DNA from: Acidimicrobiales bacterium
GTDB lineage: Bacteria; Actinomycetota; Acidimicrobiia; Acidimicrobiales; JAUJNH01
Direction: 5' to 3'
Assembly (NCBI GenBank): GCA_038255915.1
Contig: JBBSKY010000006.1
Location: 1,221-65,220, forward strand
Length of the DNA stretch: 64,000 nucleotides
Shown: piece after piece, positions 24,469 through 57,123 of the stretch
Layout: every line of letters starts with the position of its first letter
How positions within the stretch are numbered: position 1 is the stretch's first letter
The notes under the pieces: generated by a model
What the model was told of the DNA's origin: nothing
What the model saw: only the letters and a program-made list of their open reading frames with translations
Database searches by the model: none
Made by a program: the position numbers and the translations under genes

Positions 24469-24471
24469 CTC

Positions 24472-32870: not shown

Positions 32871-33287
32871 GTGCCCGTCCCCACCTCGGCCGTCGTCCGC
32901 GCCCTCGGCGAGGACGTCGTCCTCGAACCCCTCCCCGGGGCGCCGGACCTGACCGACGTCCGCGACGCCCTCGAGCGCCTGGCTCCGGTCGAGCTGGCCC
33001 CAGGCGACGTCCGGGCCGCACTCGCAGTGGTCGCCGAGCACGCCACCCTCAACCCCTACGCCGCCCTCACCAGCCGGCACCCGGCCATCGCCCGTCTGAA
33101 GCTGGTCACCCGCAAGCTGACGTTCTTCGTGGCCCACAGCCTGGCCGTGCAGGTCACCGACCTGGCCCACGCCCTGCTCGTCGCCGGCGCCGCCACCGCC
33201 GACCGGCTCGAGCTGCTGGAGGAGGAGAACGCCCGGCTCCGCCACGACCTCGACGAGCTGCGCCGGCGCCAGGGCACCACTTCATGA
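32871..33287 (+). CDS. Hypothetical protein with a C-terminal coiled-coil
   Basis: 138 aa. ...ADRLELLEEENARLRHDLDELRRRQ. Its stop overlaps the next GT4 start (ATGA). Codon usage resembles neighbouring genes. Confidence 0.45.
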   Translation: MPVPTSAVVRALGEDVVLEPLPGAPDLTDVRDALERLAPVELAPGDVRAALAVVAEHATLNPYAALTSRHPAIARLKLVTRKLTFFVAHSLAVQVTDLAHALLVAGAATADRLELLEEENARLRHDLDELRRRQGTTS

Positions 33288-37211: not shown

Positions 37212-37216
37212 CCCGA

Positions 37217-38452: not shown

Positions 38453-38454
38453 GC

Positions 38455-39144
38455 GTGACCAACCCGTCGGACGACGCGCTGGCCGGTGCCATCGACTACA
38501 AGCGCCTCTACGACTACCGCTTCAAAGACGTCGACCAGGCGGGCCGGGTCGCGGTCTGGGGGGTCCTCGGACTGTGGCTGTGGGAGCGGATGGGCCGGCC
38601 CCAGCGGGTCCTCGACCCCGCCGCCGGTCGCTTCGAGTTCCTGAACGCCATCGGTGCCGGCGAGCGATGGGCCGTCGACCAGGTCGACACCGGGTTCGCC
38701 CGCCACCCCACCATCCGCCTCGAGGTCGGTGACGCCCAGCAGGTGGTGCTCCCGGCCGACCACTTCGACGGCGTCTTCGTCAGCCACTTCCTCGAGCACC
38801 TCCAGAGCCAGCAGCACGTCGCCCTGTTCCTACGCCACCTCCTCACCGCCACCGCCCCCGGCGGCACCATCGCCATCCTCGGGCCCAACTTCCGCTACTG
38901 CGCCTCGCAGTACTTCGACTGCGCCGACCACGTGGTCCCCCTGTCCCACGTCTCGGTGGCCGAGCACCTCCACGCCGCCGGGTACGAGGTGACCGAGGTC
39001 ATCCCCCGCTTCCTCCCGTTCTCCTTCCGCTCGGCCCTCCCGCCCTCCTCCACCCTCACCGCCGCCTACCTCCGCCTCACCCCGGCGTGGCGGCTGCTGG
39101 GCAAGCAGCTGCTGATCCTGGCCCGCAAGCCCGACCCTTCCTAG
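38455..39144 (+). CDS. Class I SAM-dependent methyltransferase
   Basis: GTG 38455, 2 nt after the wzt stop. ...RVLDPAAGRFEFL..., FDGVFVSHFLEHL and APGGTIAILGPN. Confidence 0.7.
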   Translation: MTNPSDDALAGAIDYKRLYDYRFKDVDQAGRVAVWGVLGLWLWERMGRPQRVLDPAAGRFEFLNAIGAGERWAVDQVDTGFARHPTIRLEVGDAQQVVLPADHFDGVFVSHFLEHLQSQQHVALFLRHLLTATAPGGTIAILGPNFRYCASQYFDCADHVVPLSHVSVAEHLHAAGYEVTEVIPRFLPFSFRSALPPSSTLTAAYLRLTPAWRLLGKQLLILARKPDPS

Positions 39145-39154: not shown

Positions 39155-40138
39155 ATGGACGACGGCCCCACGGGGGGCGTGGATGACGTAGCGGTCGTCA
39201 TCCCGGTCTACGGGGGTGAGCACACCCTCGAGCCGCTCGTCGCCGAGATCCGGCCCCTCACCGAGGTCACCACGACCGCCGCGGGCCGGCGCTACCGGGT
39301 GGTCGAGATCATCCTCGTCCACGACCGGGGCCCGGACGCCTCGGCCCAGGTGATCGCCAGGCTCTGCAGCGAGCCGCCCGTCCGCGCCGTGTGGCTGGCC
39401 CGCAACTCCGGCCAGCACGCCGCCACCGTCGCCGGCATCGCCAGCTCCTCCGCCCCATGGGTGGTCACCCTGGACGAGGACGGCCAGCACGTGCCGGCCG
39501 ACATCGGGCTCCTCCTCGACCGGGCCCACGCCGCCCAGGTCCACCTCGTGTACGGCCGCCCTGAGGAGGGGGCTCCCCACGCCCTGTGGCGCAACGCCAC
39601 CAGCGACGCGGCGAAGTGGCTGGCCCGCACGGTGGCGGGCTCCGACCTCGACGACTTCACCAGCTTCCGGCTCATCGAGGGGCCGAGGGCCCGGGCCGTG
39701 TGCGCCTACGTGGGCCGCCGCACGTTCCTCGACTCGGCCCTGCGGTGGGGCATCGACCGCAGCGAGGTCCACCGCACCACGTGGCGCCCCGAGAACCGCT
39801 CCCGGTCGGGCTACGACCTGAACCGGCTGCTCTCGCACTTCTGGACCCTGGTGCTGAGCAGCGGGAACCGCCCGCTGCGGATCGTGTCCACCGTCGGCGG
39901 GGTGGTGGCCGCTACCGGCACCCTCGGTGCGGGCGTGGTGGCCTGGCGCCGGCTGCAGCCCGACTGGGACGACGCCCCGGGCTGGGCGTCGGTGATGGTC
40001 GTCCAGCTCGTCTTGGGCGGCGGCGTCCTGGCCACCCTCGGGGTCCTGGCCGAGTACGTCGGGGCGCTCCTGCGCATCGCCCAGGGCCAGCCGCTCTACA
40101 TCACCGTCGACGCGCCGGAGCCAGCTCCGCCCGCGTGA
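39155..40138 (+). CDS. GT2 polyprenyl-phosphate glycosyltransferase (GtrB/ArnC/DPM1-like) with two C-terminal TM helices
   Basis: 327 aa. VAVVIPVYGGEHTL, ILVHDRGPD, NSGQHAATVAGI and VVTLDEDGQH. C-terminal hydrophobic hairpin. Confidence 0.85.
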   Translation: MDDGPTGGVDDVAVVIPVYGGEHTLEPLVAEIRPLTEVTTTAAGRRYRVVEIILVHDRGPDASAQVIARLCSEPPVRAVWLARNSGQHAATVAGIASSSAPWVVTLDEDGQHVPADIGLLLDRAHAAQVHLVYGRPEEGAPHALWRNATSDAAKWLARTVAGSDLDDFTSFRLIEGPRARAVCAYVGRRTFLDSALRWGIDRSEVHRTTWRPENRSRSGYDLNRLLSHFWTLVLSSGNRPLRIVSTVGGVVAATGTLGAGVVAWRRLQPDWDDAPGWASVMVVQLVLGGGVLATLGVLAEYVGALLRIAQGQPLYITVDAPEPAPPA

Positions 40139-41085
40139 CCGCTCCCCCGGTTCGGACCCTGCTTATCGGAGCCGGCCAGGTGGGGCAGGCCGTGGCGGCC
40201 GCCCTCGCCGAGCCGCCGGCCACCGTGCAGGTGCCGTGGGAGGAGCCGGCCTCGGCCCGGGAGGTGATCGGCGGTGCGGTCCAGCGGTTCCTCCACGACG
40301 CCGAGGACCGGCGCTGGGCGCTGTGCTGGTCGGCAGGCAAGGGGGTCGTCGGCACGCCGGGGGCGGCCCTCGAGCTGGAGCGCAGCTACCTGGCCGCGGC
40401 GCTGGCGGCCGTGGCCGCGGCGCCGGCGGACGTCCGCTCGAACGGCCAGCTGTGCCTGGCCAGCTCGGCCGGCGGCATCCACGCCCGAGAAGGCTCCGGC
40501 GCCGTGACCGAGGCCTCCGAGCCGACGCCGGTGTCGCAGTACGGCCATCACAAGCTGTGCCAGGAGCACGACGTCCGGCGGTTCGCGGCCGCATCAGGGC
40601 TCCCCTGCCTGCTCGGTCGCATCTCGAACGTTTACGGCCCCGGCCAGGACCTGCGGAAGTCCCAGGGCTTCGTCTCGGTCCTGTGCCGAGCCATGCTGCG
40701 ACGCGACGGCTTCGTGCTCACCGTGCCGCCGGACACCATCAGGGACTTCGTCTACGGCGCCGACGTCGGCCGCCGGATGGCGGCCTGGCTGGAGGCCGAC
40801 CACCGCGACCTCGCCGGTGCAGCCGCCGTGAAGCTGCTGGTGTCGGGGCGCTCGACGACGCTGCACGAGGTGATCGCCGTCGTCCGGTCGGTGGCCCGGG
40901 TCCCGGCCCGGATCACCGTGTCGGCCCTCCCCCGCCCCGGCCACCAGCCTCTGCGCACGGTCTTCCACTCGATGTCCCTGCCCGAGCTCGACCGGGCCGC
41001 ACCCACGACCTGCCTGGCCGAGGGGGTGCACCGCACCTGGCAGCACCTCCTGCACGCCACCGCGGCGGAAGGGACCGGGGGCTGA
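40135..41085 (+). CDS. Extended SDR (NAD-dependent epimerase/dehydratase/reductase family)
   Basis: GTG 40135 (GTGA overlap with the GT2 stop). LLIGAGQVGQAV (GxGxxG) and SQYGHHK (YxxxK). Confidence 0.65.
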   Translation: MTAPPVRTLLIGAGQVGQAVAAALAEPPATVQVPWEEPASAREVIGGAVQRFLHDAEDRRWALCWSAGKGVVGTPGAALELERSYLAAALAAVAAAPADVRSNGQLCLASSAGGIHAREGSGAVTEASEPTPVSQYGHHKLCQEHDVRRFAAASGLPCLLGRISNVYGPGQDLRKSQGFVSVLCRAMLRRDGFVLTVPPDTIRDFVYGADVGRRMAAWLEADHRDLAGAAAVKLLVSGRSTTLHEVIAVVRSVARVPARITVSALPRPGHQPLRTVFHSMSLPELDRAAPTTCLAEGVHRTWQHLLHATAAEGTGG

Positions 41086-41113: not shown

Positions 41114-41728
41114 TCAGGTCGGCTTGGTCGCCTGCTGGACGCAGTGGGTGTAGGGGAAGCGGTAGACGTCGGACCAGATCTCCTGGTCGACCGCACCGAA
41201 GGACGCCTCCACCAGCCGGCGGTAGTCGTTCGGGTGGCGGACGAACCGGCCCCGGTCGAGGGCCATCAGGACGCGGGCGACGGCCCGCTGGGAGGGCTCG
41301 AAGCAGGGGTCCATGGTGACCAGGCGACCCCCGGGCTCGAGCAGGTCGCAGGCCGAGGCGAGGCCCCGGCCGGCGGTCTCGTCGTCGAGGTGGTGCAGGA
41401 CGCCCAGGCACACCACGACGTCGACGGGGCCGGTGCCGAGGGCGTCGAGGTCGAACACGTCACCGCAGATGAACCGGGCGTGAGCCGAGCCGTGGTCCGC
41501 CTCGGCCGACCGGATGTAGGAGGGGTTGCTGTCGACCCCGACGTAGTCGACCGTGGGCAGGAACGGGACCAGGCGGCCGTTGCCGCACCCGAAGTCGAGC
41601 ACCCGCAGACCGGGCCGGGGATGGATCACCCGGTCCCGGAGAAGCTCCATCTCCCGGTGGGCGCCGATGGTCCGCCGCGACGCCTCATAGGCGAGGGGCG
41701 ACGCCAGCACCCGCTCCAGCACCCGCAC
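41114..41728 (-). CDS. Class I SAM-dependent methyltransferase
   Basis: 204 aa. RVLDFGCGNGRL (motif I), VDVVVCLGVLHHLDD and LEPGGRLV. Confidence 0.8.
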   Translation of the reverse strand: MRVLERVLASPLAYEASRRTIGAHREMELLRDRVIHPRPGLRVLDFGCGNGRLVPFLPTVDYVGVDSNPSYIRSAEADHGSAHARFICGDVFDLDALGTGPVDVVVCLGVLHHLDDETAGRGLASACDLLEPGGRLVTMDPCFEPSQRAVARVLMALDRGRFVRHPNDYRRLVEASFGAVDQEIWSDVYRFPYTHCVQQATKPT

Positions 41729-41790: not shown

Positions 41791-43533
41791 GTGGAAGGGA
41801 ACCGGCGGCGTGGCGCGGCGGGCCTCACCGATCTCGTCCTGGCCGCCGCCATCGCCGTCGCCGGCTTCACCCTCCTACGGCCCGACTGGTTCCACAACCA
41901 GAACGGGCTCGACCCGTTCTTCTACACGGGCATGTCGCTCAACCTGTCCGACGCCATCGACTACGGGGCGGACGCCCACTACTTCCTGTCGAGGTGGACC
42001 CTCTACATCCCCGAGCTCCTGGCCCAGCGGCTGCTTGGCCCGTCGGTCGGCTTCATCGCCACCCGCCTCGTGCTCCTGGCGCTGGCGGGCGCCGGCCTCG
42101 CCCTCCTGCGCCCGGCGACATCGCGCCGCCTCGACCTCCTCCCGGTGGCCGTGGTCGGGCTGTTCTCACCGCTGGTCGTCCGGGCCGTCTTCGTCGACTA
42201 CAGCGATGCGGTCGTCGTCCCCTGCGGCCTGGCCATGCTCGCCTTGGCCGCCAAGGGACGGGTTGGAGGCCGCACGTCGGCGGCCATCGGGGCCCTGGGG
42301 GCCTGCGCCGTGGTCGCCAACACCTTCGCCCTCGTCATGGTCGCCCTCACCATCGGCGGCTACCTGGCCCGCTCGCTCCCGACGCCCCGCCGGCTCCCGA
42401 CGCAGCTGGCGGCCATCCTGGTGGCGGGCACCGCCGTCATCGGCGCCGGCCTGGTGTTCTTCCGGTGGCGCTACGGCATCGCCAACGTCTATGCCCCCGC
42501 CATCGACTTCGTGCGGGACAACGCCGGCAACCGCGACCCGCTCAAGTCGCCCCGCCTGGTGTGGCTGCAGTTCCGCCTGTGGATCTTCCTGCCTCCGCTG
42601 GTGCTCGCCGCCGCCGCCGCCCTGCGGGCGGCCCGGGTGATCCGCCTGGGTCCCGCCGAGCTCGTCGTGCTCGGCGTGGCGGCGGTCCAGTACGCCTTCC
42701 AGGTCACCTACCAACTCGTCCTCGACGGCTCGACGTTGGAGATCAGCTACTACTTCTCGTACATGGTGCCGGCCTACACGGCCGCCCTCGCCGTCGTGCT
42801 GTACGGCCTGCTCCAGCGTTGCTCGAGACTGGCGACCTGGGCGTTGACCGCGGCCGTCGTCACCCTCCTCGCCGCCTGGCGGCACCTGCCCGAGGTCCAC
42901 CTGGCCAGCTGGACGACCTTCGCCGGCGGGGTCGTCGCCATCGGCCTCATCGGCGGCCTGCTGGCCCGCCGGCTGCCCGTCCTGCTCCCCGTCGGGGTGG
43001 TGGCCGTGGTCCTGGCCGCCCAGCTGGCGCCGCCGGCCGACGAACCCAGGCTGCCGGGCGAGCTGCGGGTGGACGCGGGCTACGCCACGGTCTACCGGGG
43101 CGGCACCTCCACCGGGGTCGAGCGGTTCCGGGCCATCCCCGCCTTCCTCAACCAGGTCCACGCCCTCGACCCCCAGGTCCGCAAGGGGGCAGGGTGGATC
43201 GTGGGCCGAGGCACCGGCCAGCAGAAGGCGGCCGTCCTCTCGGTCCAGGTCGGCATGCCGAGCCGCTGGCTCAACCCGCCCGCCGCCCAGCTCGACCCCT
43301 ACCTGCCCGTCAACCCGTCGCGCTTCGCCGCCGACCGCTTCGTCGAGCAGCGCCTCACCCACATCATCGTCGTGTGCCTGCCCGAGGAGCTCCCGGTCGT
43401 CCTCACCCGCCTCGAAGAGCTCGGCTTCACCGTCGGCCCACCCCTTCTCGACGACGTTGACACCCTGGCGAAACCGGCCACCCAGCTCTACGTTGCCCCC
43501 ATGGCCCTGCGTGGCGGCGACGGAGCCGGGTGA
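41791..43533 (+). CDS. Polytopic membrane protein (GT-C-like or polymer-processing; uncharacterised)
   Basis: 580 aa with more than 10 hydrophobic segments, a first loop NQNGLDPFFYTGMSLNLSD, and a soluble C-terminal domain of about 170 aa. Confidence 0.5.
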   Translation: MEGNRRRGAAGLTDLVLAAAIAVAGFTLLRPDWFHNQNGLDPFFYTGMSLNLSDAIDYGADAHYFLSRWTLYIPELLAQRLLGPSVGFIATRLVLLALAGAGLALLRPATSRRLDLLPVAVVGLFSPLVVRAVFVDYSDAVVVPCGLAMLALAAKGRVGGRTSAAIGALGACAVVANTFALVMVALTIGGYLARSLPTPRRLPTQLAAILVAGTAVIGAGLVFFRWRYGIANVYAPAIDFVRDNAGNRDPLKSPRLVWLQFRLWIFLPPLVLAAAAALRAARVIRLGPAELVVLGVAAVQYAFQVTYQLVLDGSTLEISYYFSYMVPAYTAALAVVLYGLLQRCSRLATWALTAAVVTLLAAWRHLPEVHLASWTTFAGGVVAIGLIGGLLARRLPVLLPVGVVAVVLAAQLAPPADEPRLPGELRVDAGYATVYRGGTSTGVERFRAIPAFLNQVHALDPQVRKGAGWIVGRGTGQQKAAVLSVQVGMPSRWLNPPAAQLDPYLPVNPSRFAADRFVEQRLTHIIVVCLPEELPVVLTRLEELGFTVGPPLLDDVDTLAKPATQLYVAPMALRGGDGAG

Positions 43534-43682: not shown

Positions 43683-43734
43683 CTGAGCGACCCTGTGCTA
43701 AGAAGGACTCCATCAATCGACGGGAGAATTCTGC

Positions 43735-45093
43735 ATGCCTCACTTCTTGACCAGTGTCCGCAAGCCAAGGTATCTGGCGGCCGCCGCCGGCGTGGCGCTC
43801 CTCCTGACCGCAGTTGGAACCGGGATCCAGCCGAGCGGCGCCGAGGCCTTCTGTGACGCCGACCCCTGCGGCCCGGAGGGCACCTACACCCCGGTGACAC
43901 CGACCCGCCTCCTCGACGGCCGGCTGACCGACCCCCAGATCCGTCTCGGTGTCGACGGAACCACCGACCTGAAGGTCACCGGCGTGGTAGATGAAGATGA
44001 CGTGGAATTGGTTCCTGCGACGGGCGTCTCCGCAGTGGTGCTGAACCTCACCGTCGACCTGCCGACCTTGGACAGCTTCTTCACGATCTCCCCCACCGGC
44101 ACGGCCACCACCACATCGAGCCTGAACTTCGCCGCCGGCGAGACCAGAGCGGCCGCCACCACGGTCAAGGTCGGAACGGACGGCATGGTGACCATCACCA
44201 ACGCCTTCGGTCAGGCCTTCCCCATCGTCGACATCCAGGGCTACTTCTCTGACGGCACCGAGGACGAGGAGCCCGGCAGCTCCTACGTGCCGCTCCCGAC
44301 CCCGAGCCGGGTCGTCGACACCCGGGTCGGCGGCGCCGCGAACAAGTTCGCAGCCGACACGACGAAGAACATCTCCTTGACCGACCCCCCGGTGGAGGGG
44401 GCCACCTCCGTGCCGGCGGGCGCCACCGCCGTCGTCGCCAACCTCACCGTCACCAACACCACCGCTGACGGCTACCTCACCGCCTTCGCCGAGGGGACCG
44501 ACCCGCCACTGGTGTCCAACCTCAACTGGGCCGCCGGCCGGCAGATCCCGAACCTGGCCACCATCCCCCTCAGCACCGACGGCATGATCACGGTCTACAA
44601 CTCGGCCGGAGCCACCGACGTCCTGATCGACGTGACCGGCTACTACGTGCCCGAGGATGACGAGACGGTCGGTGACCGGTTCACCCCGGTTGACCCCGAC
44701 CGCATCGGCGACTCCCGCTCGGCCATCGGAGGTCTCGTCACCTTCACCACCGCCGACCAGGCCCAGAACCTGAAGGTCACCGGCGCGGATGCGGCGCCGG
44801 AAGGCGCGTCCGCCGTCGTGGTGTCCATAACCAGTGACAACGTCACCGCCGAGACCTTCTTCACCGCCTACCCCAAGGGTGGAGCGACGGCGCCCAACGT
44901 GTCGAACCTCAACCCGATCGCCGGCGAGCAGGCCGCCAACCTGGCCATCGTCCGGGTCGGGGACAACGGTGAGATCACCCTGCTGAGCAGGACGCCGACG
45001 GCAAACGTCATCGTCGACCTCTACGGCTACTTCGAGGGTGAACCTCCTGCGGAGGCCATCATCGACATCGCCTTCGATCCTCTGCTGGGTTAG
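43735..45093 (+). CDS. Secreted protein made of a signal peptide plus three divergent copies of the unassigned ~130-aa module
   Basis: 452 aa. Signal peptide AAAAGVALLLTAVGTGIQPSGAEA. Copies begin at YTPVTPTRLLDGR, YVPLPTPSRVVDTR and FTPVDPDRIGDSR. Each contains AVV.N.TV...GY/F.T..P....P..SNLN and ends in D..GY[FY]. Confidence 0.7.
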   Translation: MPHFLTSVRKPRYLAAAAGVALLLTAVGTGIQPSGAEAFCDADPCGPEGTYTPVTPTRLLDGRLTDPQIRLGVDGTTDLKVTGVVDEDDVELVPATGVSAVVLNLTVDLPTLDSFFTISPTGTATTTSSLNFAAGETRAAATTVKVGTDGMVTITNAFGQAFPIVDIQGYFSDGTEDEEPGSSYVPLPTPSRVVDTRVGGAANKFAADTTKNISLTDPPVEGATSVPAGATAVVANLTVTNTTADGYLTAFAEGTDPPLVSNLNWAAGRQIPNLATIPLSTDGMITVYNSAGATDVLIDVTGYYVPEDDETVGDRFTPVDPDRIGDSRSAIGGLVTFTTADQAQNLKVTGADAAPEGASAVVVSITSDNVTAETFFTAYPKGGATAPNVSNLNPIAGEQAANLAIVRVGDNGEITLLSRTPTANVIVDLYGYFEGEPPAEAIIDIAFDPLLG

Positions 45094-45176: not shown

Positions 45177-47516
45177 TCAGCGGCGGGCGGAGCGGAGGCG
45201 GTCGAGGGCGGCTAGGAGGTCGGCTGCGGTGGTGGCGAAGGTGCGGCGGGCGGCCTCGGCCAGCCCGCCCCGGGACAGGGCTTCCCTCCGGGCGGGCTGC
45301 TCCAGCAGGTCGAGGAGGACGGTGGCCAGCTCCTCGCTGCCGCGGCCTGGGTCCAGCTGGAGGACGGTGCCCTCGGCCAGCTCGGCGGCCGCCGCCACGT
45401 TGGTGACACAGGGCACGCCCAGGCCGAGGAGGTCGCCGATGGCCGCCGAGCTCTCGCCGTAGGTGGTGGACCGCAGCTGGACGCCGACGCTGGCCCGGGC
45501 CACCCACGCCCAGTACTCCTCCCGTGACAGCTGGCCGGTGGTGGTGACGTGCCCGGCCACGCCGAAGGCCTCGGCCGCCTCGGCGATGCGGTGGCGCCAG
45601 TCGTCGCCGATCCAGCCGACGAAGGCCAGACGGGCCGGGCGGCGGGTGCGCACCAGGGCCAGCGCCTCGACCAGCACCAGGGGCGACTTCACGGCGTCGA
45701 CGATCCCGAGGGCGACCAGGAGCGGCGGGTCCTCCTCGGGGGCCCGAGGACGCGGGGGTCGGGGCACGGCCAGCGGCAGAACCTCGACCGGGGGCAGCAC
45801 CGAGCCCGGGCGCTGGTCGAGGGCGAGGAGGCGGGCGGCCAGCTGCGAGCTGACGATCACCCCGGTGCTGTCGGCCACGGCCCGCCCGGTCATGCCGATG
45901 CCCCGCTTGGCCAGCTCGTTCGGCAGGGCCCGCAGCTGCGGGGTGGTGTGCAGCTCGGCGGCCGGGTAGAGCTCGGCCAGCTGGTGGGCCAGGTACCCGT
46001 CCGGATCTGCGTGCCGAAGCGATTCGCCCCACGCCGGCCCGGTGAGGCGGACGTCGTGGAACCAGGCCACGCCCGGGTGCCGGCGCAGGGCCTCGAGGGA
46101 GCGAACGTGGTGGACCGAGTTCCCGAGCGTGTACACCAGGTGGTCGAAGGACCAGGGGTTGTACATCGTCTCGATCATCAGCACCGAGGCAACCTCGTAG
46201 CCCACCTCGTCCCTCGGCGCGGTGCCCATGGGGTCGAAGGCCACCACGTCGGCCAGCCGGGCCAGCTCGTCGAGCAGCTGCCCGTTGTAGGTGGCGACAC
46301 CGCTGTCGATGGGCGGGAGCGGGCCGACGACGCCGATGACGGGTCGTGACGGGCGACGGGTCATCGGCGGCGGGTGACCGCTGGTGCGGAGCCCGTCGAG
46401 GGCCGCCACGGCCCGATCGGCGACAGCGGTCCAGGTCAGCCCGGGTGCGCGGGCTGCGGCCCGCTCGGCCAGCTCGTCGCGGAAGGGCCCGTCAGCTAGG
46501 CCTGCGGCCACCACCCGGGCCAGGTCGAGGGCGTCGGTGGCGTCGAAGGTGGACGGAGGCCACCGCAGGATCTCGGGCAGCGACGTGGTGTTCGAGGTGA
46601 CCGCGGGGCAACCGCAGCGGATGGCCTCGGCCACGGGCAGCCCGAACCCCTCGTAGAGGGAGGCGAAGGCGAACAGGCGGGCCGACTGGTAGAGGGCCCG
46701 GAGCACCTCGTCGCTGACGTAGCCGGTCAGCACCACCTCGTCGTCGTCCAGGCCCTCATCCAGGCCCACGGCCACGAGGGCGGCCAGCGACGGCCCGTCC
46801 ATCCGGCAGGCCACGACCAGCTGGTGGGCCCGGCGCAGGTCCTCGGGCAGGCGGGCCCAGCCCCGGACGAGCCCGGACAGGTTCTTGTGCGGCGCCGGCG
46901 CCCCCACCGAGAAGACGAAGGGACGGGTGACGGCGGGGAGGGTGTGGCGGACCAGGGCGGCGGGGAGGGCCGGGTCGCCGGAAGGCCGGAACCAGTCCCC
47001 CGTCCCGGCGCCGATGACAACGACGCGCCCGGGCTCGACGTCGAGGTGGCGCACCGCGTCGTCCCGGGTGTGGTCGGAGATGGTGAGCACCAGGTCGGCC
47101 TGGCGGATGAGGTCGAGGCGCTGGTGGTGGGTGCGGTGGCGCCAGCCCTCGAGGTAGGTGGCGGGGTGGATCGAGGGGATGAGGTCGTAGACGATCGTCG
47201 CCACCGGCCAGCCCCGGCGGGAGATGTGGGGCGGCAGCATCACCGTCGGCCGGGCCCCCTCCATCGGCGACATGACCACGTAGGCAGCGTCGTCGCCGAC
47301 GTCGGCGACCGCGGCCCCGGTGTTCCAGGACAGCAGGGGCGAGGCGAGGAGGTCGGTGGGCAGCGCCGGCGGGAAGGGCAGGCTGGGGTTGAGCAGCAGC
47401 CGCTCCACCCGCCCGGTGGCCACCAGCGCCCTGGCGCACTCGGTGACGTAGCGGGCGATGCCCCGGTCGGGGTGGTGGAGCGACTGGGCGGCCTGCAGGT
47501 CGAGGAGCAGCCGCAT
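45177..47516 (-). CDS. Tandem double-GT4 glycosyltransferase (two GT-B modules; WbdA-like polymerase architecture)
   Basis: ATG 47516 (MRLLLDLQAAQSLHHPDRGIARY). First module ends ...YEGFGLPVAEAIRCGCPAVTS. A second GT-B-like half has TYGESSAAIGDLLGLGVPCVTN. Paralogue of 50907-53285. Confidence 0.8.
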   Translation of the reverse strand: MRLLLDLQAAQSLHHPDRGIARYVTECARALVATGRVERLLLNPSLPFPPALPTDLLASPLLSWNTGAAVADVGDDAAYVVMSPMEGARPTVMLPPHISRRGWPVATIVYDLIPSIHPATYLEGWRHRTHHQRLDLIRQADLVLTISDHTRDDAVRHLDVEPGRVVVIGAGTGDWFRPSGDPALPAALVRHTLPAVTRPFVFSVGAPAPHKNLSGLVRGWARLPEDLRRAHQLVVACRMDGPSLAALVAVGLDEGLDDDEVVLTGYVSDEVLRALYQSARLFAFASLYEGFGLPVAEAIRCGCPAVTSNTTSLPEILRWPPSTFDATDALDLARVVAAGLADGPFRDELAERAAARAPGLTWTAVADRAVAALDGLRTSGHPPPMTRRPSRPVIGVVGPLPPIDSGVATYNGQLLDELARLADVVAFDPMGTAPRDEVGYEVASVLMIETMYNPWSFDHLVYTLGNSVHHVRSLEALRRHPGVAWFHDVRLTGPAWGESLRHADPDGYLAHQLAELYPAAELHTTPQLRALPNELAKRGIGMTGRAVADSTGVIVSSQLAARLLALDQRPGSVLPPVEVLPLAVPRPPRPRAPEEDPPLLVALGIVDAVKSPLVLVEALALVRTRRPARLAFVGWIGDDWRHRIAEAAEAFGVAGHVTTTGQLSREEYWAWVARASVGVQLRSTTYGESSAAIGDLLGLGVPCVTNVAAAAELAEGTVLQLDPGRGSEELATVLLDLLEQPARREALSRGGLAEAARRTFATTAADLLAALDRLRSARR

Positions 47517-47527
47517 GGCGGACGGCT

Positions 47528-48373
47528 TCAGCCCGGGGCCCGGGCCAGCTCGACCAGAACCAGGTGATCGGCGGTCGGTTCGGCCGGCTGTCCCACCATC
47601 CAGCCGCCGTCGACCTTGAACGCGGTAGCCCGGTGGGTGACGGCCCAGCCGGCGTCGGCCAGAGCGGCGAGGCAAGGCTGCAGGCTGATGTCGGCCGTCG
47701 CTCCGACCACAGGTGCGGCGACGACAAGACGCCCGCCGGTCGACAGCCACGCCGCCGCAACCTCGAGCCGTCTCGGATCGTCGGCGGTCAAGGGGCCCCG
47801 GCAGGCGAACACGACGACGGCGGCCGGACCTGCCTCCCCGGCGGCGGCCTCCCCCGCGGCAGACTCCCAGCCCGGTGTCTGGACGCCACGGTCGAGAGGC
47901 GAATCAGCCCCACCCCCGACGAGCGTGGTGGGGTGGCCGGCGCCGGCGGTGAAGACGGCGAGCTCGGCCAGCCCACCGACCAGCACGACCGGGCCCCCGG
48001 GCGTGGCCCGGCCGAGGGCGGCGAGGGCGAAGGGCACCTCGACCGCGGCCCGGCTGCCTGCGAGGTGGCTCGCCGACGGGTCTGGCGAGCCGACCGCGGC
48101 ACCAAGCTCGGCCAGCCGGCGCTCGACCCGCAGGGCGGCGTGCTGGAGGAGGGTGGAGGCCTCGGCGACGGTGGTCATGGCCGGGTCGACGACCTCGTAC
48201 ATGCGGTCGTGGACGCGGTGGGTCTCGCTCTGCAGGCCGTCGATGCGCGCCCCCAGGCTCTCCCGGGTGTGCTGGGCCTCGTTCGTGACATGCCGGAACA
48301 GGGTTTCGAGCTTGGCGTTCAGGGCCGAGGTGACCGGTGCGGTGGCGCGGCGGAGGCTCGCGGCGATGCCCAT
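47528..48373 (-). CDS. Helical N-terminal domain plus a degenerate methyltransferase-like domain (paralogue of 53297-54391)
   Basis: ATG 48373. 281 aa. An N-terminal region of about 95 aa is helical (LETLFRHVTNEAQHTRESLGARIDGLQSETHRVHDRMYE...). The C-terminal Rossmann-like region has VVLVGGLAEL where the paralogue has VLDLGAAES. Confidence 0.5.
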   Translation of the reverse strand: MGIAASLRRATAPVTSALNAKLETLFRHVTNEAQHTRESLGARIDGLQSETHRVHDRMYEVVDPAMTTVAEASTLLQHAALRVERRLAELGAAVGSPDPSASHLAGSRAAVEVPFALAALGRATPGGPVVLVGGLAELAVFTAGAGHPTTLVGGGADSPLDRGVQTPGWESAAGEAAAGEAGPAAVVVFACRGPLTADDPRRLEVAAAWLSTGGRLVVAAPVVGATADISLQPCLAALADAGWAVTHRATAFKVDGGWMVGQPAEPTADHLVLVELARAPG

Positions 48374-48449
48374 GTCGGGGTTGGACCCTACCGCTGCGGT
48401 CGAGGCCGCTAGCCTCCGGCGCCGTGCTGTGGACCTCGAGACCGTCCTG

Positions 48450-50126
48450 ATGCGGGAGGTGACGGCGGCGTCGGCGCCGGCGGTCGCCCCCCCACCAAAG
48501 GACCGGGCCCCACGCCCCGAGGGCACGGCTCGTCAGCCGCCGGAGGCGTCGGTCGAGGACCCCACGCCCCACCCCCCCACGAAGCCCTCGACCGGGCTCG
48601 CCGGCCTCCTTTGGATCGGCGTGCTCGGCGTCGCCGTGCGGGTCTGGCTGCTGGCCTCACCGCTCGGGTACCTCAACTCCGACGAGGCCCACACCTCGAT
48701 CCAGGCCCGCGAGCTGTTCCGGGGCCACGCCTGGATCCTGGTGCCGGGCACCCCCTACGGCGGCAACGTCGAGGCCTGGATCGACGCGCCGCTGGCCGCC
48801 CTGCTCGGCCTGTCCGCCACCCGCAACAAGGTCGAGGCGATCCTGCTCTGGCTGGTGGCCGGGCTGGTGCTGGCCCGGTCGGTGCGCCACCTCGGCCGGG
48901 GCCCGGTGGCCGCCGCCTTCGGCGTGGTGTGGCTCCCCTCGGCCGCCATCGTGCTGCTCAGCACCCTCGACTACCCCGGCTACGCCGTCGGGTTCCTCGC
49001 CACCTGCGGGGTGCTGGCCCTGGCCCGACCCCTCATCGACGATCCACCGCCGCCGGCCCAACCTGGAGGGGACCAGCTGGAGCTTCGGGCCCTGGCCTGG
49101 CGGGCCGCTGCCACCGGTGCCCTGGCCGGGCTGGCCGTGTGGCAGCACCCGCTCTACGGCTGGATCTGCGCCACCACGCTGGCCGCGGTGGCCTGGCGCC
49201 AGCGCCGCCTCGCCCGTTCGGTCCTCCTCCCGCTGGTCGCCGGCGGTGTGGTGGCCCTGGCCCCGGTCGTGGTCACCAACCTGCGCCACGACCTGGTGTC
49301 GCTGCGGTTCCGGAGCCCGGCCGCCATCGCCTACCCCGAGCGGGTCCGGGCCTGGGTCACCGACCTGTACCCCCGGTCGGTGGGTGCCAAGTGGCTGGAC
49401 CCCGGGTGGGTCCTCCGCGGCCCTAGCCAGGTGCTGGCCGTGCTGCTGCTCGCCACCCTCCTGGCCACCTGCGTCGCCGTTGTGCGATGGTCGCCCCCGT
49501 CGGGGAAGGTGGCGGCCGGAACGCTGGTCCTGGCCCCCTTCACCCTCACGCTGCTGGGCAACACCGCCTACACCCAGGACGCCCGCTACGCCGCCATGGT
49601 GCTGCCCGTCGCCGGCCTGGTGGTGGCCCACGGCGTCGCCCTCCTCCCCCCGGGCTGGCGCACCGGCCGCAGCATCGCCCTCGTGGCCACGGCCTGGGCC
49701 CTGCTGGCCGTGGCCCTGCCCCTCAGCCGCACCGACATGGCCGCCTTCGGTGACCGCACCGGCGAGGTCGACCAGCTGGTGGACTTCCTCGACGCCCGCC
49801 AGATCACCGCCGTCCGGGCCGACTACTGGGTGGCCTACCGGGTCGTGGTCGAGAGCGACGAGCGCATCGCCGCCAGCCCCCTCGACCCGATCAAGTTCGA
49901 CCGCTACGAGCAACGGGTGCGTCAGGCCGACACCGACGCCGGCGGCGCCGGTGTGCTCGTGCTCGACCGGGACCAGGCCGCCACCTACCCGGCCGCCGTC
50001 GCCAGGGGCGAGCTCCCGTACCGGTCCTTCCCGCAGTTCCAGGGCCACCAGCAGGTCGAGGTCTCCCGGTGGACGGTGTTCCTGCCGCCCGGCCCGCCGG
50101 CAGCCTCCACCACCGGCGGCGGCTGA
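48450..50126 (+). CDS. GT-C-like polytopic membrane glycosyltransferase (ArnT/PMT-like)
   Basis: Start is ATG 48450 or GTG 48429. First loop YLNSDEAHTSIQARELFRGH, at least 10 hydrophobic segments and a soluble C-terminal domain. Followed 2 nt later by a GT2 gene. Confidence 0.6.
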   Translation: MREVTAASAPAVAPPPKDRAPRPEGTARQPPEASVEDPTPHPPTKPSTGLAGLLWIGVLGVAVRVWLLASPLGYLNSDEAHTSIQARELFRGHAWILVPGTPYGGNVEAWIDAPLAALLGLSATRNKVEAILLWLVAGLVLARSVRHLGRGPVAAAFGVVWLPSAAIVLLSTLDYPGYAVGFLATCGVLALARPLIDDPPPPAQPGGDQLELRALAWRAAATGALAGLAVWQHPLYGWICATTLAAVAWRQRRLARSVLLPLVAGGVVALAPVVVTNLRHDLVSLRFRSPAAIAYPERVRAWVTDLYPRSVGAKWLDPGWVLRGPSQVLAVLLLATLLATCVAVVRWSPPSGKVAAGTLVLAPFTLTLLGNTAYTQDARYAAMVLPVAGLVVAHGVALLPPGWRTGRSIALVATAWALLAVALPLSRTDMAAFGDRTGEVDQLVDFLDARQITAVRADYWVAYRVVVESDERIAASPLDPIKFDRYEQRVRQADTDAGGAGVLVLDRDQAATYPAAVARGELPYRSFPQFQGHQQVEVSRWTVFLPPGPPAASTTGGG

Positions 50127-50128
50127 GG

Positions 50129-50923
50129 GTGTGGGAGGGCCAGACCATCTCGGTGGTGCTGCCCACCTACAACGAGGTGGGCAGCATCCGCTCGTGCATC
50201 GAGGCCTTCGAGGCACTCGGCATCGTGGACGAGGTCCTGGTGGTCAACAACAACGCGGCCGAGGGCACCCGCGAGGCCGTGGCCCCCACCGGGGCCCGTG
50301 AGGTCGACGAGCCGGTCCAGGGCTACGGCGCCGCCATCCGCCGGGGGCTGGCCGAGGCCCGTGGCGACCTGGTCGTCCTGTGCGAGCCCGACGGCACGTT
50401 CGACCCGAGCGACCTGCGCAAGCTGCTCCCGTTCACCGTCGACACCGACGTCGTGTGGGGCTCGCGCACCGTCCAGGTGTTCATCTGGGACGGAGCCAAC
50501 ATGGGCCTGTTCCTGCGGTGGGGCAACTGGGCCGTGGCCAAGCTCATCGAGGTGATCTTCGGCACCGCCTACCTGAGCGACGTGGGCTGCACCATGCGGG
50601 TCATGCACCGCCACGTGGTCGAGAGCCTCCTCCCCACCTTCCGCCTCACCGGCTCGGCCTTCGGCCTCGAGCTCCTCCTGCGCAGCATCGTCGCCCGCCA
50701 CCGCTTCGTGCAGGTCCCCGTGCGCTACAAGCAGCGGGTCGGCCACTCCTCGGTGACCGGCGACCGGTGGAAGGCGGTGGCGCTGGGCCTGGAGATGATC
50801 CGCCTCGTGCTGCGCTTCCGGTTCCGCCTGCGGTCGCTGGCGGCCCAGCCGCTGGCCCCCGACCGCGACGCCCGGGGCCTCCCCCGGGAGGGGCCTGACG
50901 CCCCCCTCAGCCCGACGGGCTGA
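50129..50923 (+). CDS. GT2 glycosyltransferase (polyprenyl-phosphate sugar synthase-like)
   Basis: GTG 50129. ISVVLPTYNE, VLVVNNNAAEGT, VLCEPDGTFDPSD and an amphipathic basic C-terminus. Confidence 0.8.
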   Translation: MWEGQTISVVLPTYNEVGSIRSCIEAFEALGIVDEVLVVNNNAAEGTREAVAPTGAREVDEPVQGYGAAIRRGLAEARGDLVVLCEPDGTFDPSDLRKLLPFTVDTDVVWGSRTVQVFIWDGANMGLFLRWGNWAVAKLIEVIFGTAYLSDVGCTMRVMHRHVVESLLPTFRLTGSAFGLELLLRSIVARHRFVQVPVRYKQRVGHSSVTGDRWKAVALGLEMIRLVLRFRFRLRSLAAQPLAPDRDARGLPREGPDAPLSPTG

Positions 50924-53285
50924 CCGGGTCCGGGAAGGGATCGCGCACCACGCCGTCGGCCAGCGCGTCGAGGGTCGGCAGCAGGGCACCGGCCAGGTGG
51001 GCGTAGGTCCAGCGGGCCGCGGTGGACCGGCCAGCGGCGGCGAGGGCGGCCCGGCGCCCGGGATCGGCCAGGAGGCGGCCGAGCACGTCGGCCAGCCCGA
51101 GGGCGCCGATGGAGGGGGGGACGCGGACGATGGCCTCGGCCGGCAGCTCGACTGCAGTGCTCACGCTGGTCAGGCAGGGCACCCCGGCGGCCAGCAGCTC
51201 GCGCACGGCACCCGAGCTCTCGCCCGAGGTGCCGCGGCGCAGCACCACCCCCACGCTGGCCCGACCCACCCACCGCCACCAGGTGGCGTCGTCCACCGGG
51301 CCCACCACCTCGACGGCGTCCTCGAGGCCACGCTCGCGGGCCAGCGCCAGGATCCACCGCCGCCGGCTCTCATGCGCCGGGCCGACGAAGGCGAGGCGGG
51401 CCGGCACCTCCTGGCGCAGCAGCGCCAACGCCTCGACCAGGGCGTCAGGGGCCTTCGACTCGTCGAGGTGGCCCGGGGCCAGGAGGAGCGGCGGGTCGTC
51501 CGGCTCGGGGGCGGCGAGGGTGGCCGGGTCGGGGTAGGCGAGCGGGAGGACGACCGTGGGCGGCACGGCCTGGCCGGGCTGCTGGTCGAGGGCCACCAGC
51601 CGGCGGGCCAGGTCGGAGGTGACGATGCAGCCGCGGGCCCAGCGCACCACCTGGCCCGTGAGGCCCACGCCCCCACGGCTCAGCACGCCCGGGTCGCGCC
51701 AGGTGGCCTCGTCCAGACGGAGGTGGCGTCCGGGGTGGAGCGCCTCCTCCCCCTCGGCCACCCACTCACCCGACAGTCCGAGGAGCCTGGCCCGCTCGGT
51801 GCGGATGGCCGGGAGGCGGGCCTCGTGCAGCCACACGATCCCGCCGTGGCGGCGCACGGCCTCGACCGTGGGCCAGTGGTGATCGGAGTTGCCCACCACC
51901 GACACCAGGTGGTCGAAGGACTCCGGGGCCAGGCTGCGGCCCAGCGCCCGCAGCGGCGCCACCCGCACCCCGGCGGGCACGTGGTGCAGGCGGCGGGCCT
52001 CGGGGTCCAGGGCGACGACCTCGGCGTGGCGGGCCAGCTCGGGCAGCAGGCGCCCCGCCACCACGGCGATGCCGGACGAGGACGGGGGCAGCGGCGTGGC
52101 CAGGGTGATGCGCCGGGTGCGAGGCGGCCGCCGCCGACGGACCGGATCGGCCGGCGCCGGCACCCGGGCCAGGGCGTCGAGCACCCGCTGGGCGGTGGCG
52201 TCCCAGGTGAACCGGGTGAGCCGCTCGGCCCCCCGGGCCCTGATGGCCGTCCGCAGGCCGTGGTCCACCAGGCCGGCGGTGATGCGCTCGGCCATCGCCG
52301 CAGGGTCATCAGGGTCGAAGGTGGAGGCAGGGAGGCCCAGGATCTCAGGCAGAGCGCTGCGGTCGGAGGTGAGGGCCGGGCAGCCGCAGGCCAGCGCCTC
52401 CAGGACGGGGAGGCCGAGGCCCTCATAGGACGAGGGGAACACGAACAGCGCCGCGTCTCGGTACAGCTCGCGCAGGGCCAGGTCGCTCACGTAGCCCGTG
52501 AGCACCACCTCGTCCTCGGCCAGGCCAGACCCGGCGGCCAGCACCCGCAGGTGGTTGAGGGCGGGGGGGCTCAGGTGGCAGGCCACCACCAGCTGGTGGG
52601 CGGCCCGCACCGGCTCGGGCACCAGGGCCCAGGCCCGGACCAGGCCGTCGAGGTTCTTGCGCCCGTCGCCGCCGCCCACGCTGAGGACCGGGCGGCGGAC
52701 GAGCCCCGGCACCAGGGCGTGGGCCTGGCTGGCCTCGGAGGCCGGGCGGGGGGTGAAGAACGAGCTGACCCCGCCCAGCACCGACACCACCCGCCCCCCG
52801 GCCAGGCCGAGGTGGTCGAGGGCGTCGCGCCGGCTGTTCTCCGAGATGGCCAGCACGAGGTCGGCCTGGCGGTACAGCTCGAGGCGCTGGCGGTAGCGGG
52901 CCCACACCCCACCGGTGAAGTAGCGCTCGCGCAGCACCAGGGGGATCAGGTCGAACAGCACCGCCACGACGTGGGCGCCGCAGGCCCGGACGTGCGGCGG
53001 CAGCACCGAGTCGGGCGGCACCTCCTCCATGGGCGACAGGATGAGGTGGGCCACCTCGCCCTCGAGGCGGTCGTAGGCCCGGGGCGACGCCCACCCGAGG
53101 CCAGGGTGGGCCAGGAGCTCGGGTGGCAGGGAGCGGGGGAACGGCAGCGACGGGTTGAGGGTGAGCAGCGCCACCTCCGCGCCGCCCCGGTGCAGGGCGG
53201 TGGCCAGCTCGACGGCGTAGCGGGCGATGCCCCGGTCGGCGTGGGCCGCCGACTGGGTGCACTGCAGGTCGAGGACGAGCCGCAT
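50907..53285 (-). CDS. Tandem double-GT4 glycosyltransferase (paralogue of 45177-47516)
   Basis: ATG 53285 (MRLVLDLQCTQSAAHADRGIARY). YEGLGLPVLEALACGCPALTS. The second half has TSGESSGAVRELLAAGVPCLTS. The 236 upstream codons of the track ORF are R/P-rich and overlap the next gene. Confidence 0.8.
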   Translation of the reverse strand: MRLVLDLQCTQSAAHADRGIARYAVELATALHRGGAEVALLTLNPSLPFPRSLPPELLAHPGLGWASPRAYDRLEGEVAHLILSPMEEVPPDSVLPPHVRACGAHVVAVLFDLIPLVLRERYFTGGVWARYRQRLELYRQADLVLAISENSRRDALDHLGLAGGRVVSVLGGVSSFFTPRPASEASQAHALVPGLVRRPVLSVGGGDGRKNLDGLVRAWALVPEPVRAAHQLVVACHLSPPALNHLRVLAAGSGLAEDEVVLTGYVSDLALRELYRDAALFVFPSSYEGLGLPVLEALACGCPALTSDRSALPEILGLPASTFDPDDPAAMAERITAGLVDHGLRTAIRARGAERLTRFTWDATAQRVLDALARVPAPADPVRRRRPPRTRRITLATPLPPSSSGIAVVAGRLLPELARHAEVVALDPEARRLHHVPAGVRVAPLRALGRSLAPESFDHLVSVVGNSDHHWPTVEAVRRHGGIVWLHEARLPAIRTERARLLGLSGEWVAEGEEALHPGRHLRLDEATWRDPGVLSRGGVGLTGQVVRWARGCIVTSDLARRLVALDQQPGQAVPPTVVLPLAYPDPATLAAPEPDDPPLLLAPGHLDESKAPDALVEALALLRQEVPARLAFVGPAHESRRRWILALARERGLEDAVEVVGPVDDATWWRWVGRASVGVVLRRGTSGESSGAVRELLAAGVPCLTSVSTAVELPAEAIVRVPPSIGALGLADVLGRLLADPGRRAALAAAGRSTAARWTYAHLAGALLPTLDALADGVVRDPFPDPVSPSG

Positions 53286-53296
53286 CAGGGCCCGGC

Positions 53297-54391
53297 TCAG
53301 GCCGGGCGGGCCCGCAGCAGCACCACGCCGGGGACCTCGGCGTCGACCAGGTCGACGGCTGGGCACGGCACCCAGGTGACGGCGTCCTGCGGGCGGCAGA
53401 AGCTGAGGTCGTCGAGGGCCCAGCCCTCGAGCAACCGCTCCAGCCCGGCGGCGTCGTAGACCCGCTGGAGCTCGTCGATCGACGCCCGGCCGTACGGCGC
53501 GGTCAGCACCAGCAGCCCGTCGGGGGCCAGCCAGCCCTTCAGCTGGGTGAGGGCATCGCGGTCGGCGTCGGGCCGGCCGCCGTCGAGCGCGTAGGACCCG
53601 AGGCCCAGGTGCTCGATGGTGGACAGCGAGATGACGGCGCCGAGCGGCTCTGAGGGGCCCTCCCAGTCGTGGACCCCGAGGGTGACCACCTCGAGGTTGG
53701 GGTGGCTGAAGGGGTAGCCACGGGGCTCGACGGCGTAGGTGGGGCGACCGGAGCTGGCCAGGGAGAGCGACAGCGTGCTCTCTGCGGCCCCGAGGTCGAG
53801 GACCGGCCGGTCCGGGCTGACCGTGGCCAGGGCGGCGTAGACGTAGGGCAGCTCGACGATCCGCTCGTTCACCGCGCCCACCTCGGCGCCGCCGGCGAAG
53901 AGCCGGACGACCACGGGGTGGTTCACCCACAGGCCCACCTCGGACGGGGGGCTGCGGTGGGAGCCGAGCCAGTTCGCCAGGTCGGCCAGCCACGGCTCGA
54001 GCTCGGCCAGCGGGGTCCGCTCCAGCTGCCGCTCGATCGCCGCTCCGAGGTGGGGCTCGGCCCGCAGGTGGGCGATGGCCCGCTCGGCGCTGGTCACGTC
54101 GACCTGCTGCACGAGGCGGACCTCGAGGCGCTCGGCCACCTGCTGGAGGAACACGGTGGCCTCGGCCAGCGACACGACCGTCGGCTCGATCTGCTCCACC
54201 GACTCGTGGAGGGCGGCCCGGTGGTCGTCGAGCGCCTCGACGACCCCGCCCACCACTCCGGCGGCCACGTCATTCGGCAGGTCCCGCCGCAGGTCGGCGC
54301 CCACGTTGGTGACGTGGGTGAACAGGTCGCCGAAGCGCTTGTCGACAAAGGCGGTGAGCGGCCGGGCCGCCGCCTTCAGGGGGTCAGCCAT
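53297..54391 (-). CDS. Long helical N-terminal domain fused to a class I methyltransferase-like domain
   Basis: 364 aa. An N-terminal helical region of about 150 aa, then NERIVELPYVYAAL, VLDLGAAESTLS (motif I-like), VISLSTIEHLG and LAPDGLLVLTAPYG. Confidence 0.6.
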   Translation of the reverse strand: MADPLKAAARPLTAFVDKRFGDLFTHVTNVGADLRRDLPNDVAAGVVGGVVEALDDHRAALHESVEQIEPTVVSLAEATVFLQQVAERLEVRLVQQVDVTSAERAIAHLRAEPHLGAAIERQLERTPLAELEPWLADLANWLGSHRSPPSEVGLWVNHPVVVRLFAGGAEVGAVNERIVELPYVYAALATVSPDRPVLDLGAAESTLSLSLASSGRPTYAVEPRGYPFSHPNLEVVTLGVHDWEGPSEPLGAVISLSTIEHLGLGSYALDGGRPDADRDALTQLKGWLAPDGLLVLTAPYGRASIDELQRVYDAAGLERLLEGWALDDLSFCRPQDAVTWVPCPAVDLVDAEVPGVVLLRARPA

Positions 54392-54464: not shown

Positions 54465-56418
<1,954 letters not shown>

Positions 56419-56431
<13 letters not shown>

Positions 56432-57123
56432 GCATCGAGGGGGTCGAGGGGATCGGCGAGGTGCGCCCCGGCGACGTCCTGGCCCAGCTCATCAGGGTCG
56501 CGGCGGGCGACCGGCTCCGGGCCGGCGACGTCGTGGTGGTCACCCAGAAGGTGGTGAGCAAGGCCGAGGGGCGCCTGGCGGCCGTCGACCCTGACGACCC
56601 GAGGGGCCACCAGCCGCTGGTCGAGGCCGAGGCCGTGCGGGTGCTGCGCCGCCGGGGCGACCTGACCATGACCGAGACCCGGCACGGCTTCGTGTGCGCC
56701 AACTCGGGGGTGGACCTGTCGAACGTCGAGCGGGGTTGGGCCGCCCTGCTGCCGGTCGACCCCGACCGGTCGGCCCGCCGCATCCGCGACGGCCTGCGGG
56801 CCCGCCTCGGCCTCGAGGTCGCCGTGGTGGTGAGCGACACCTTCGGCCGGGCGTGGAGGCGAGGGGCCACCGACGTCGCCATCGGCATCGCCGGGCTGGC
56901 CGGCGTGGTCGACCTCCGGGGCACCTCCGACGCCCTCGGCCGTCCACTCCAGGTCACCGAGGTGTGCATCGCCGACGAGGTCGCCGCCGCCGCCGAGCTG
57001 GTGATGGGCAAGGCCCGTTCGGTGCCGGTCGCCATCGTCCGCGGGCTCGACCCGGCGTTCCTGCGGGAGGGCTCGGTCCACGACGAGGTCGTCCGGCCCC
57101 ACGCCGAGGACCTCTTCCGCTGA
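56419..57123 (+). CDS. cofE: Coenzyme F420:L-glutamate ligase, single-domain form
   Basis: 234 aa. VVVVTQKVVSKAEGR, THGFVCANSGVDLSN, VVVSDTFGRAWRRG and ADEVAAAAELVMGK. No C-terminal nitroreductase-like domain follows. Confidence 0.85.

Follow-up and report, generated by a model that had tools for sequence, protein, structure and literature searches.

In a stretch of 64,000 nucleotides (nt) from contig JBBSKY010000006.1 of assembly GCA_038255915.1 (the whole of it is called the window below), two cassettes each encode a helical, methyltransferase-like protein (X-A or X-B) followed by a tandem double glycosyltransferase of family GT4 (GT-A or GT-B). By analogy with the WbdD/WbdA system, we propose that a terminator-polymerase module has been duplicated into one copy with a live terminator and one with a dead terminator, and that two polymerases now share one capping enzyme; we regard this reading as about evenly poised between right and wrong. 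The best-matching homologues bear the names of Acidimicrobiales metagenome-assembled genomes, and the host resembles an uncultured actinobacterium of Acidimicrobiales type.

The two cassettes and their proteins

Cassette B consists of X-B (53297-54391, minus strand, 364 amino acids (aa), third-position GC (GC3) 0.97) and GT-B (50907-53285, minus strand, 792 aa), and cassette A of X-A (47528-48373, minus strand, 281 aa) and GT-A (45177-47516, minus strand, 779 aa). All four open reading frames (ORFs) of an initial annotation are present at the coordinates given there and are called real genes by the GC3 frame analysis, by which genes were called in this window of ~73% GC. Order and orientation are the same in both cassettes as annotated, and the gaps, given there as about 11 nt, are exactly 11 nt from stop to start in each (gccgggccctg at 53286-53296 for X-B/GT-B and agccgtccgcc at 47517-47527 for X-A/GT-A, both on the minus strand). 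Direct reading of the two junctions showed no clear Shine-Dalgarno sequence in either; because of such short gaps without a clear Shine-Dalgarno sequence, X and GT are probably translationally coupled in each cassette. The cassettes are not in tandem, being separated by genes for a membrane protein (about 48450-50126) and a GT2 glycosyltransferase (50105-50923) on the opposite strand.

The two GT proteins proved to be colinear paralogues, as had been noted, with 45% identity over 777 aa (E=0) and the common start MRL(L/V)LDLQ..Q...H.DRGIARY. Each half of GT-A and of GT-B alone passes the gathering score of Pfam Glycos_transf_1, and both are therefore tandem double GT4 proteins, with two GT-B-fold GT4 modules in one polypeptide as in the WbdA type; Glyco_trans_1_4 is also matched in both halves of GT-B. 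Of the 92 family-conserved columns, GT-B retains 83, including K210 and E288-x7-E296, and GT-A 82, including K211 and E289-x7-E297, which provide the EX7E motif of module 1. The corresponding motif of module 2 is divergent (GES....RE in GT-B, GES....GD in GT-A), leaving the activity of this module uncertain. The matches of the GTs in the PDB are generic GT4 enzymes, and we consider GT-B a candidate for the polymerase partnered with X-B.

X-B was modeled by AlphaFold2 with a mean predicted local distance difference test score (pLDDT) of 83.9, mostly above 90 in the methyltransferase core (residues 177-364). The core is preceded by helices at 4-37 and 40-96, short helices at 99-142 (continuing to about 142-151) and a beta-hairpin at 160-174. 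The top Foldseek matches of the model are all class I S-adenosylmethionine (SAM) methyltransferases, and by this fold X-B has the Rossmann-like seven-strand domain of a SAM-dependent methyltransferase. Its Pfam scores are below the cut-off (DUF268, 22.9 against 25; Methyltransf_23, 16.3 against 27), and a sequence search against the PDB gave just two weak, generic methyltransferase matches. A search for homologues gave more than 140 proteins, about 310-460 aa in length, which are named class I SAM methyltransferases where their source names them. Invariant in this family are W155, N157, N175-E-R-I-V-E180, H230, S257-x-x-E260-H261 and R310-x-Y312, together with a variant form of motif I, D199-x-G201-x-x-E204-S205. 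The region ~99-175 (short helices, W155-x-N157 and the NERIVE hairpin) forms a cap, which is a family-conserved part of the methyltransferase domain. From its sequence and model, the class I SAM methyltransferase domain of X-B looks intact and active, and by analogy X-B is a probable chain-terminating O-methyltransferase.

The shared N-terminal region claimed for the two upstream proteins was confirmed by pairwise alignment of X-A and X-B (27% identity, E=6e-9), and X-A is homologous to the X-B family over its full length (hhalign probability 95.7%). Among the 49 alignment columns with conservation of 90% or more in the X-B family, X-A retains 16; it has lost D199, E204, S205, H230, S257, E260, H261, R310, Y312 and D313, and is devoid of the whole W-x-N/NERIVE cap (about 65-70 aa). 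Because the cap and the SAM-motif residues are missing and so few columns are kept, X-A is, as far as its sequence tells, a pseudo-methyltransferase and not a functional enzyme. Thus, the description of both upstream proteins as methyltransferase-like holds for X-B by its fold, the Pfam scores being below threshold, but not for X-A, which gave no match in Pfam or NCBIfam scans and whose catalytic motifs are gone.

Conservation of the module and fate of the duplicated copies

We collected 37 non-redundant loci (designated by L numbers), each with a close homologue of X. In 36 of them the X match is followed, after 12-129 nt, by the start of a GT4 that is homologous to GT-A/GT-B (26 double GTs, seven matching module 1 only and three cut by the contig end), while the 37th carries a second X and then reaches the contig end. 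All genomes with the module come from uncultured organisms (Acidimicrobiales, Solirubrobacterales, Chloroflexota and others). Remoter homologues, related in the methyltransferase domain only, occur in Omnitrophota, Planctomycetota and Terriglobia without an adjacent double GT. These gene neighborhoods indicate that X and the double GT4 form a conserved and widespread module, previously uncharacterised.

A profile of the X-A family gave only 46 matches among 1.84 billion representative proteins, and close X-A homologues numbered only about 10. The profile matches include X-like proteins of 243-304 aa, several with degenerate motifs. One of these, P0136 in L091, is a degenerate X that is separated by 7 nt from a downstream double GT4 of 817 aa, which is followed by two FkbM-type methyltransferases, and it has no live X partner; the short X-like proteins P0142 and P0134 sit on contigs of ~1 kb, whose context is uninformative. 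In L012 from Chloroflexota the order is a degenerate X (none of five motifs), an active X (five of five), a double GT and another double GT, and L011 has an active X with a partly degenerate one after it. Judged by these motifs, pairs of live and dead X recur independently in Chloroflexota. In the active X of L012 (2822-4270) the helical N-terminus is repeat-rich and ~265 aa long, against about 100 aa in its degenerate partner; it contains LEERLAARLHALEQRLA twice, plus units like HxSLxPxLEQRVAEVA, which suggests that the length of the stalk changes by repeat expansion.

Neighbour-joining analysis of the double GTs groups GT-A of the window with its counterparts in L001 and L003, and the resulting GT-A clade and that of GT-B are sisters (bootstrap support 100%). 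Because the two clades are sisters, the duplication is lineage-specific and older than the split of these organisms. The full layout of gmd, X-B and GT-B, GT2 and membrane protein, and X-A and GT-A recurs in L001/L002, L003/L004, L087 and L089. Tandem duplications of double GTs are also seen in L023 (7019-11766) and L041 (6777-11503), where the paralogues are 92-94% identical within a genome and about 78-80% between the two genomes, a pattern that fits gene conversion or independent recent duplications.

With regard to the second cassette, one may suppose that it is redundant and drifting to loss, X-A decaying without a role of its own and GT-A being a spare or specialised transferase. Several observations are in line with this, and those made in relatives also weigh against our proposal of two cooperating copies. 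GC3 of X-A is 0.88, compared with 0.95-0.98 in the neighbouring genes, and its C-terminal domain has a raised substitution ratio and indels (see below). In L003/L004, internal deletions have left an X-A of 202 aa and, through module 1, a GT-A of 584 aa, and the GT-A homologue of L001 is without K211, E289 and E297, so that its EX7E motif is lost. The A clade also evolves faster (67.5% against 80.9% identity for the same pair of genomes). Cassette A is thus, from the sequences compared, the more labile copy, with signs of decay in relatives. On the other hand, the ratio of nonsynonymous to synonymous substitutions (dN/dS, given for comparison with L087 and then L089) is as low in the N-terminus of X-A (residues 1-95; 0.15 and 0.13) as in X-B (0.27 and 0.21), while it is 0.56 and 0.40 in the C-terminal domain of X-A (96-281), where indels are also found; the values are 0.20 and 0.19 for GT-B, and 0.26 and 0.47 (partial) for GT-A. 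These ratios point to strong purifying selection on the stalk of X-A, as on X-B, and to relaxed constraint on its former enzyme domain. Moreover, a 23-residue block (TVAEASTLLQHAALRVERRLAEL) is invariant or nearly so across ten X-A homologues, the ORFs are intact in the window and four related lineages, GT-A of the window retains its conserved residues, and a degenerate X stands beside a double GT4 independently in L012 and by itself in L091. Taken with these points, simple decay of cassette A seems improbable to us.

Helical stalks, chain termination and known systems

The helical N-termini of the two X proteins had been estimated at ~95 and ~150 aa. Both are helical indeed, but the long helices are nearly equal in the AlphaFold2 models, spanning residues 3-93 in X-A (91 aa) and 4-96 in X-B (93 aa), and the net offset in the pairwise alignment is about 6 residues. 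The difference first noted is attributable to deletion of the cap (about 55-70 aa) from X-A and not to a longer stalk in X-B. Since the stalks are equal in length, they would not encode two chain lengths.

The stalks also differ from classical coiled coils. A periodicity spectrum with shuffled sequences and a tropomyosin control, which replaced a weak home-made heptad score (intermediate values of 0.71-0.75, against 0.96-1.02 in controls), gave hydrophobic peaks at 3.64 for X-A (z=3.8 against shuffles) and 3.70 for X-B (z=2.0), whereas tropomyosin peaked at 3.50-3.52, near the 3.5 of a heptad coiled coil. Among 107 family members the peak falls at 3.6-3.8 in 62 and at 3.45-3.55 in 11. The family profile weakly matches apolipoproteins (A-I, A-IV and E), ATP synthase subunit b and the long tails of ZorA/MotA. 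These features fit amphipathic helices with an 11/3-like period, in other words a non-canonical coiled coil or a membrane-surface helix and not a classical heptad stalk. Family members differ in how far the W-x-N motif lies from the N-terminus (about 100 to 255 aa), and a conserved N-terminal motif, LR..a.P....fd.RF..L..H, is a candidate for membrane binding or polymerase recruitment.

The initial annotation also raised the idea of two WbdD-like rulers, whose coiled coils of unequal length would set two modal lengths or two polymers of different length. The N-termini of the live and dead X in L012, and the wide variation of N-terminal length in the family, speak in its favor. For the window, however, equal stalks, the deleted cap as the source of the apparent difference, the loss from X-A of the residues needed for termination by methylation and the non-heptad period all stand against it, and we consider it very improbable. 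Two polymers or two blocks, as such, are possible.

In characterised systems the terminator enzyme, borne by a long helical ruler, acts together with a multi-module polymerase, and the terminal cap is read by the carbohydrate-binding domain of Wzt (PMC11231755; PMC5082667). The cassettes resemble WbdD-WbdA of Escherichia coli O9a and Klebsiella pneumoniae O3 in that a helical methyltransferase is encoded with a polymerase of two GT4 modules (PMC5082667; PMC11231755) in an ATP-binding cassette (ABC) transporter-dependent pathway whose Wzt has a carbohydrate-binding domain. In the window, the permease Wzm (36306-37211, plus strand, Pfam ABC2_membrane) and the ATPase Wzt with a C-terminal carbohydrate-binding domain (37217-38452, plus strand, Pfam ABC_tran plus Wzt_C) are predicted to form the ABC exporter of a glycan (36306-38452), and the combination of a multi-module GT4 polymerase with such a Wzm/Wzt pair is therefore present. 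Thus, the analogy with WbdD/WbdA drawn in the initial annotation stands in architecture and context (a helical methyltransferase upstream of a dual GT4, Wzm and Wzt_C, and the pairing in 36 of 37 loci) but does not extend to family membership. When the family profile was searched against the PDB, WbdD came up no better than unrelated class I methyltransferases (E=0.003-0.007, with only 34 residues around motif I aligned), and we rejected X as a member of the WbdD family. WbdD places an extended heptad coiled coil C-terminal to its enzyme, the reverse of X, and such an element was not found here; the stalk is N-terminal, about 90 aa long and of period ~3.65. Moreover, the module is duplicated here with one copy catalytically dead, and Pfam and NCBIfam scans found no kinase family, a feature of the O9a-type WbdD.

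Other systems share part of this organization. The transport-elongation-termination (TET) operon of Pseudomonas syringae, for the D-rhamnan common polysaccharide antigen, has the order wzm-wzt-SAM methyltransferase-bifunctional GT, and the methyltransferase and the GT are fused in some strains, which implied a physical partnership (PMC7820976). Compared by description, the two loci are alike in a SAM methyltransferase gene that adjoins a bifunctional GT4 and in the presence of wzm/wzt and gmd, but wzm/wzt lie about 7-9 kb from the cassettes in the window, and that paper describes no helical stalk at the N-terminus and no second, degenerate copy. Similarly, WbbB of K. pneumoniae O12, ORF6 of O7 and ORF7 of O4 show that the modules for terminator, helical spacer and polymerase can be united in a single polypeptide or divided among several (PMC11231755), and the X-GT pair is one more arrangement of this sort. 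Their terminator, unlike X, ends a predicted heptad coiled coil (PMC11231755), and for none of them is a pseudo-enzyme paralogue reported, nor a duplication of the polymerase-terminator pair.

X-B may instead be a decorating enzyme that O-methylates the chain internally, its helices being an apolipoprotein-like membrane anchor or a docking arm and no ruler, while another methyltransferase or none caps the chain. This would agree with the period of 3.64-3.70 and the apolipoprotein matches, with the failure to find specific WbdD similarity, with the FkbM-type methyltransferases near the module in L003, L008, L009 and L091, and with two further methyltransferase genes of the cluster, 38446-39144, which overlaps the end of wzt and is apparently translationally coupled to it, and 41114-41728. 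On the other hand, in L005 and L006 (loci of ~21 kb), where the X-GT pair lies beside Wzm and Wzt with Wzt_C, no Pfam-recognised methyltransferase was found besides X. Characterised terminators carry the long helical element (PMC11231755), and the span of N-terminal lengths in the family is typical of a spacer rather than of a fixed anchor. On balance, we think internal decoration by X-B unlikely.

The proposal of a shared capping enzyme has further points to answer, in addition to those on the decay of cassette A. We infer termination, as opposed to internal O-methylation, solely from context, and either of the two other cluster methyltransferases could be the terminator. The ~3.65 period and the apolipoprotein matches suit a membrane-surface helix as well as a coiled coil. 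The model confidence of the X-B stalk is low to moderate (pLDDT of 51-77 by block), and the helix breaks differ between the two models, which makes a hairpin and an extended stalk indistinguishable. The class I fold is also seen in the X-A model (pLDDT 84.3, methyltransferase fold found by Foldseek), though the alignment behind that model included relatives of X-B and may have biased it toward this fold.

In the proposed mechanism, the conserved stalk at the N-terminus of each X would bind the GT of the same cassette. Tethered to GT-B, X-B would cap the finished chain by O-methylation, and the methyl cap would let the carbohydrate-binding domain of Wzt select the chain for export, much as in WbdD/WbdA except that stalk and enzyme are in reverse order. 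The non-catalytic X-A would hold GT-A in the assembly complex, and the product of GT-A would not be terminated. With one terminator between them, the two polymerases would then make two parts of one glycan, for example an inner block and a capped outer block, or else a repeat of greater complexity. X-A might even be a purpose-built, non-terminating partner that docks GT-A by its stalk and maybe pairs with X-B; GT-A would elongate without capping and hand its product to GT-B, and the pseudo-enzyme would order a two-block glycan. We consider this stronger version quite unlikely. If it is true, the live/dead pairs with two double GTs in L012 would make it a recurrent design principle in uncultured monoderm-type phyla.

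The surrounding cluster and significance

The gene gmd for guanosine diphosphate (GDP)-mannose 4,6-dehydratase (54477-55451, plus strand, Pfam GDP_Man_Dehyd, E=1.3e-130) is divergent from X-B and is predicted to supply a GDP-6-deoxyhexose precursor. It is directly followed by the F420 genes cofD and cofE (55469-57123, plus strand), and further downstream are a subtilase and a ManC-like nucleotidyltransferase. The order gmd-cofD-cofE, with the subtilase next in some, is kept in L001, L003 and L087; in L089 cofD follows gmd and then the contig ends. Upstream of the cassettes are GT4 genes (29152-30288, 33275-34345 and 34344-35537), a GT2 gene, a GalE-like short-chain dehydrogenase/reductase (SDR; 40135-41085, plus strand) and the methyltransferase gene at 41114-41728. 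The likeness of this SDR to solved structures starts only at ~residue 86-95, and its N-terminus contains the nicotinamide adenine dinucleotide (NAD)-binding motif IGAGQVG. The labels Rmd and Fcl were considered for this SDR (as 40177-41085) and dropped, as the PDB search gave GalE-like matches only. From this gene content, the cluster is an ABC-transporter-dependent one, fed by GDP-mannose or a 6-deoxyhexose, for a cell-surface glycan.

The pair between the cassettes consists of a polytopic membrane protein (48450-50126, plus strand, in the frame chosen by GC3 and with an uncertain start codon), divergent from X-A, and a GT2 like polyprenyl-phosphate hexose synthases (50105-50923, plus strand, Pfam Glycos_transf_2). 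The top NCBIfam matches of the GT2 are AglJ and a dolichyl-phosphate hexose transferase, both below the cut-off, and a Pfam scan of the membrane protein gave no match. A syntenic 516-aa gene adjoining the double GT4 in L005 weakly matches PMT_2 (GT-C-like), and is equated with the membrane protein of the window by position only. A membrane protein at the equivalent position is found in L004, L087 and L089, where the position of the pair as a whole is kept. The gene pair at 48450-50923 looks like part of a machinery for extracytoplasmic glycosylation, of which it would provide the lipid-carrier synthase and the GT-C component (compare PMC11127046). GT-B on the minus strand and the GT2 gene on the plus strand converge, and their 3' ends overlap by 17 nt (50907-50923).

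Next to cassette A, 43729-45093 (plus strand) encodes a protein of 454 aa in which a hydrophobic N-terminal segment is accompanied by repeats of beta-rich stretches (…NLTV…, …NLTVTNTTADGY…); its GC3 of 0.89 is below that of its neighbours, and it gave no match in Pfam or NCBIfam. The possibility that it is the FkbM-type methyltransferase seen after cassette A in L003 and L091 was ruled out by zero similarity. Further genes of high GC3 without a Pfam match lie in or beside the cluster at 22825-27392, 35534-36247 and 41824-43533 (547, 430, 515, 237 and 569 aa), and 30470-32845 (plus strand) encodes a 791-aa SpoIID-domain protein beside it. Rfam and tRNA scans of the window found nothing.

Chain termination and length control in ABC-dependent glycan assembly are understood from a few Gram-negative O-antigen systems only. 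The present analysis defines a widespread, uncharacterised module of a terminator-like protein and a polymerase, carried by uncultured members of Actinomycetota, Chloroflexota and other phyla. Compared with WbdD its topology is inverted, a non-heptad stalk standing at the N-terminus, and it has repeatedly given rise to catalytically dead copies that retain the stalk. If these dead copies are not functional, the locus would be no more than a common case of duplicated genes diverging within a cluster for cell-wall glycan. If they are functional partners, they would represent a new way to coordinate two polymerases and may offer a tool for the engineering of block polysaccharides.

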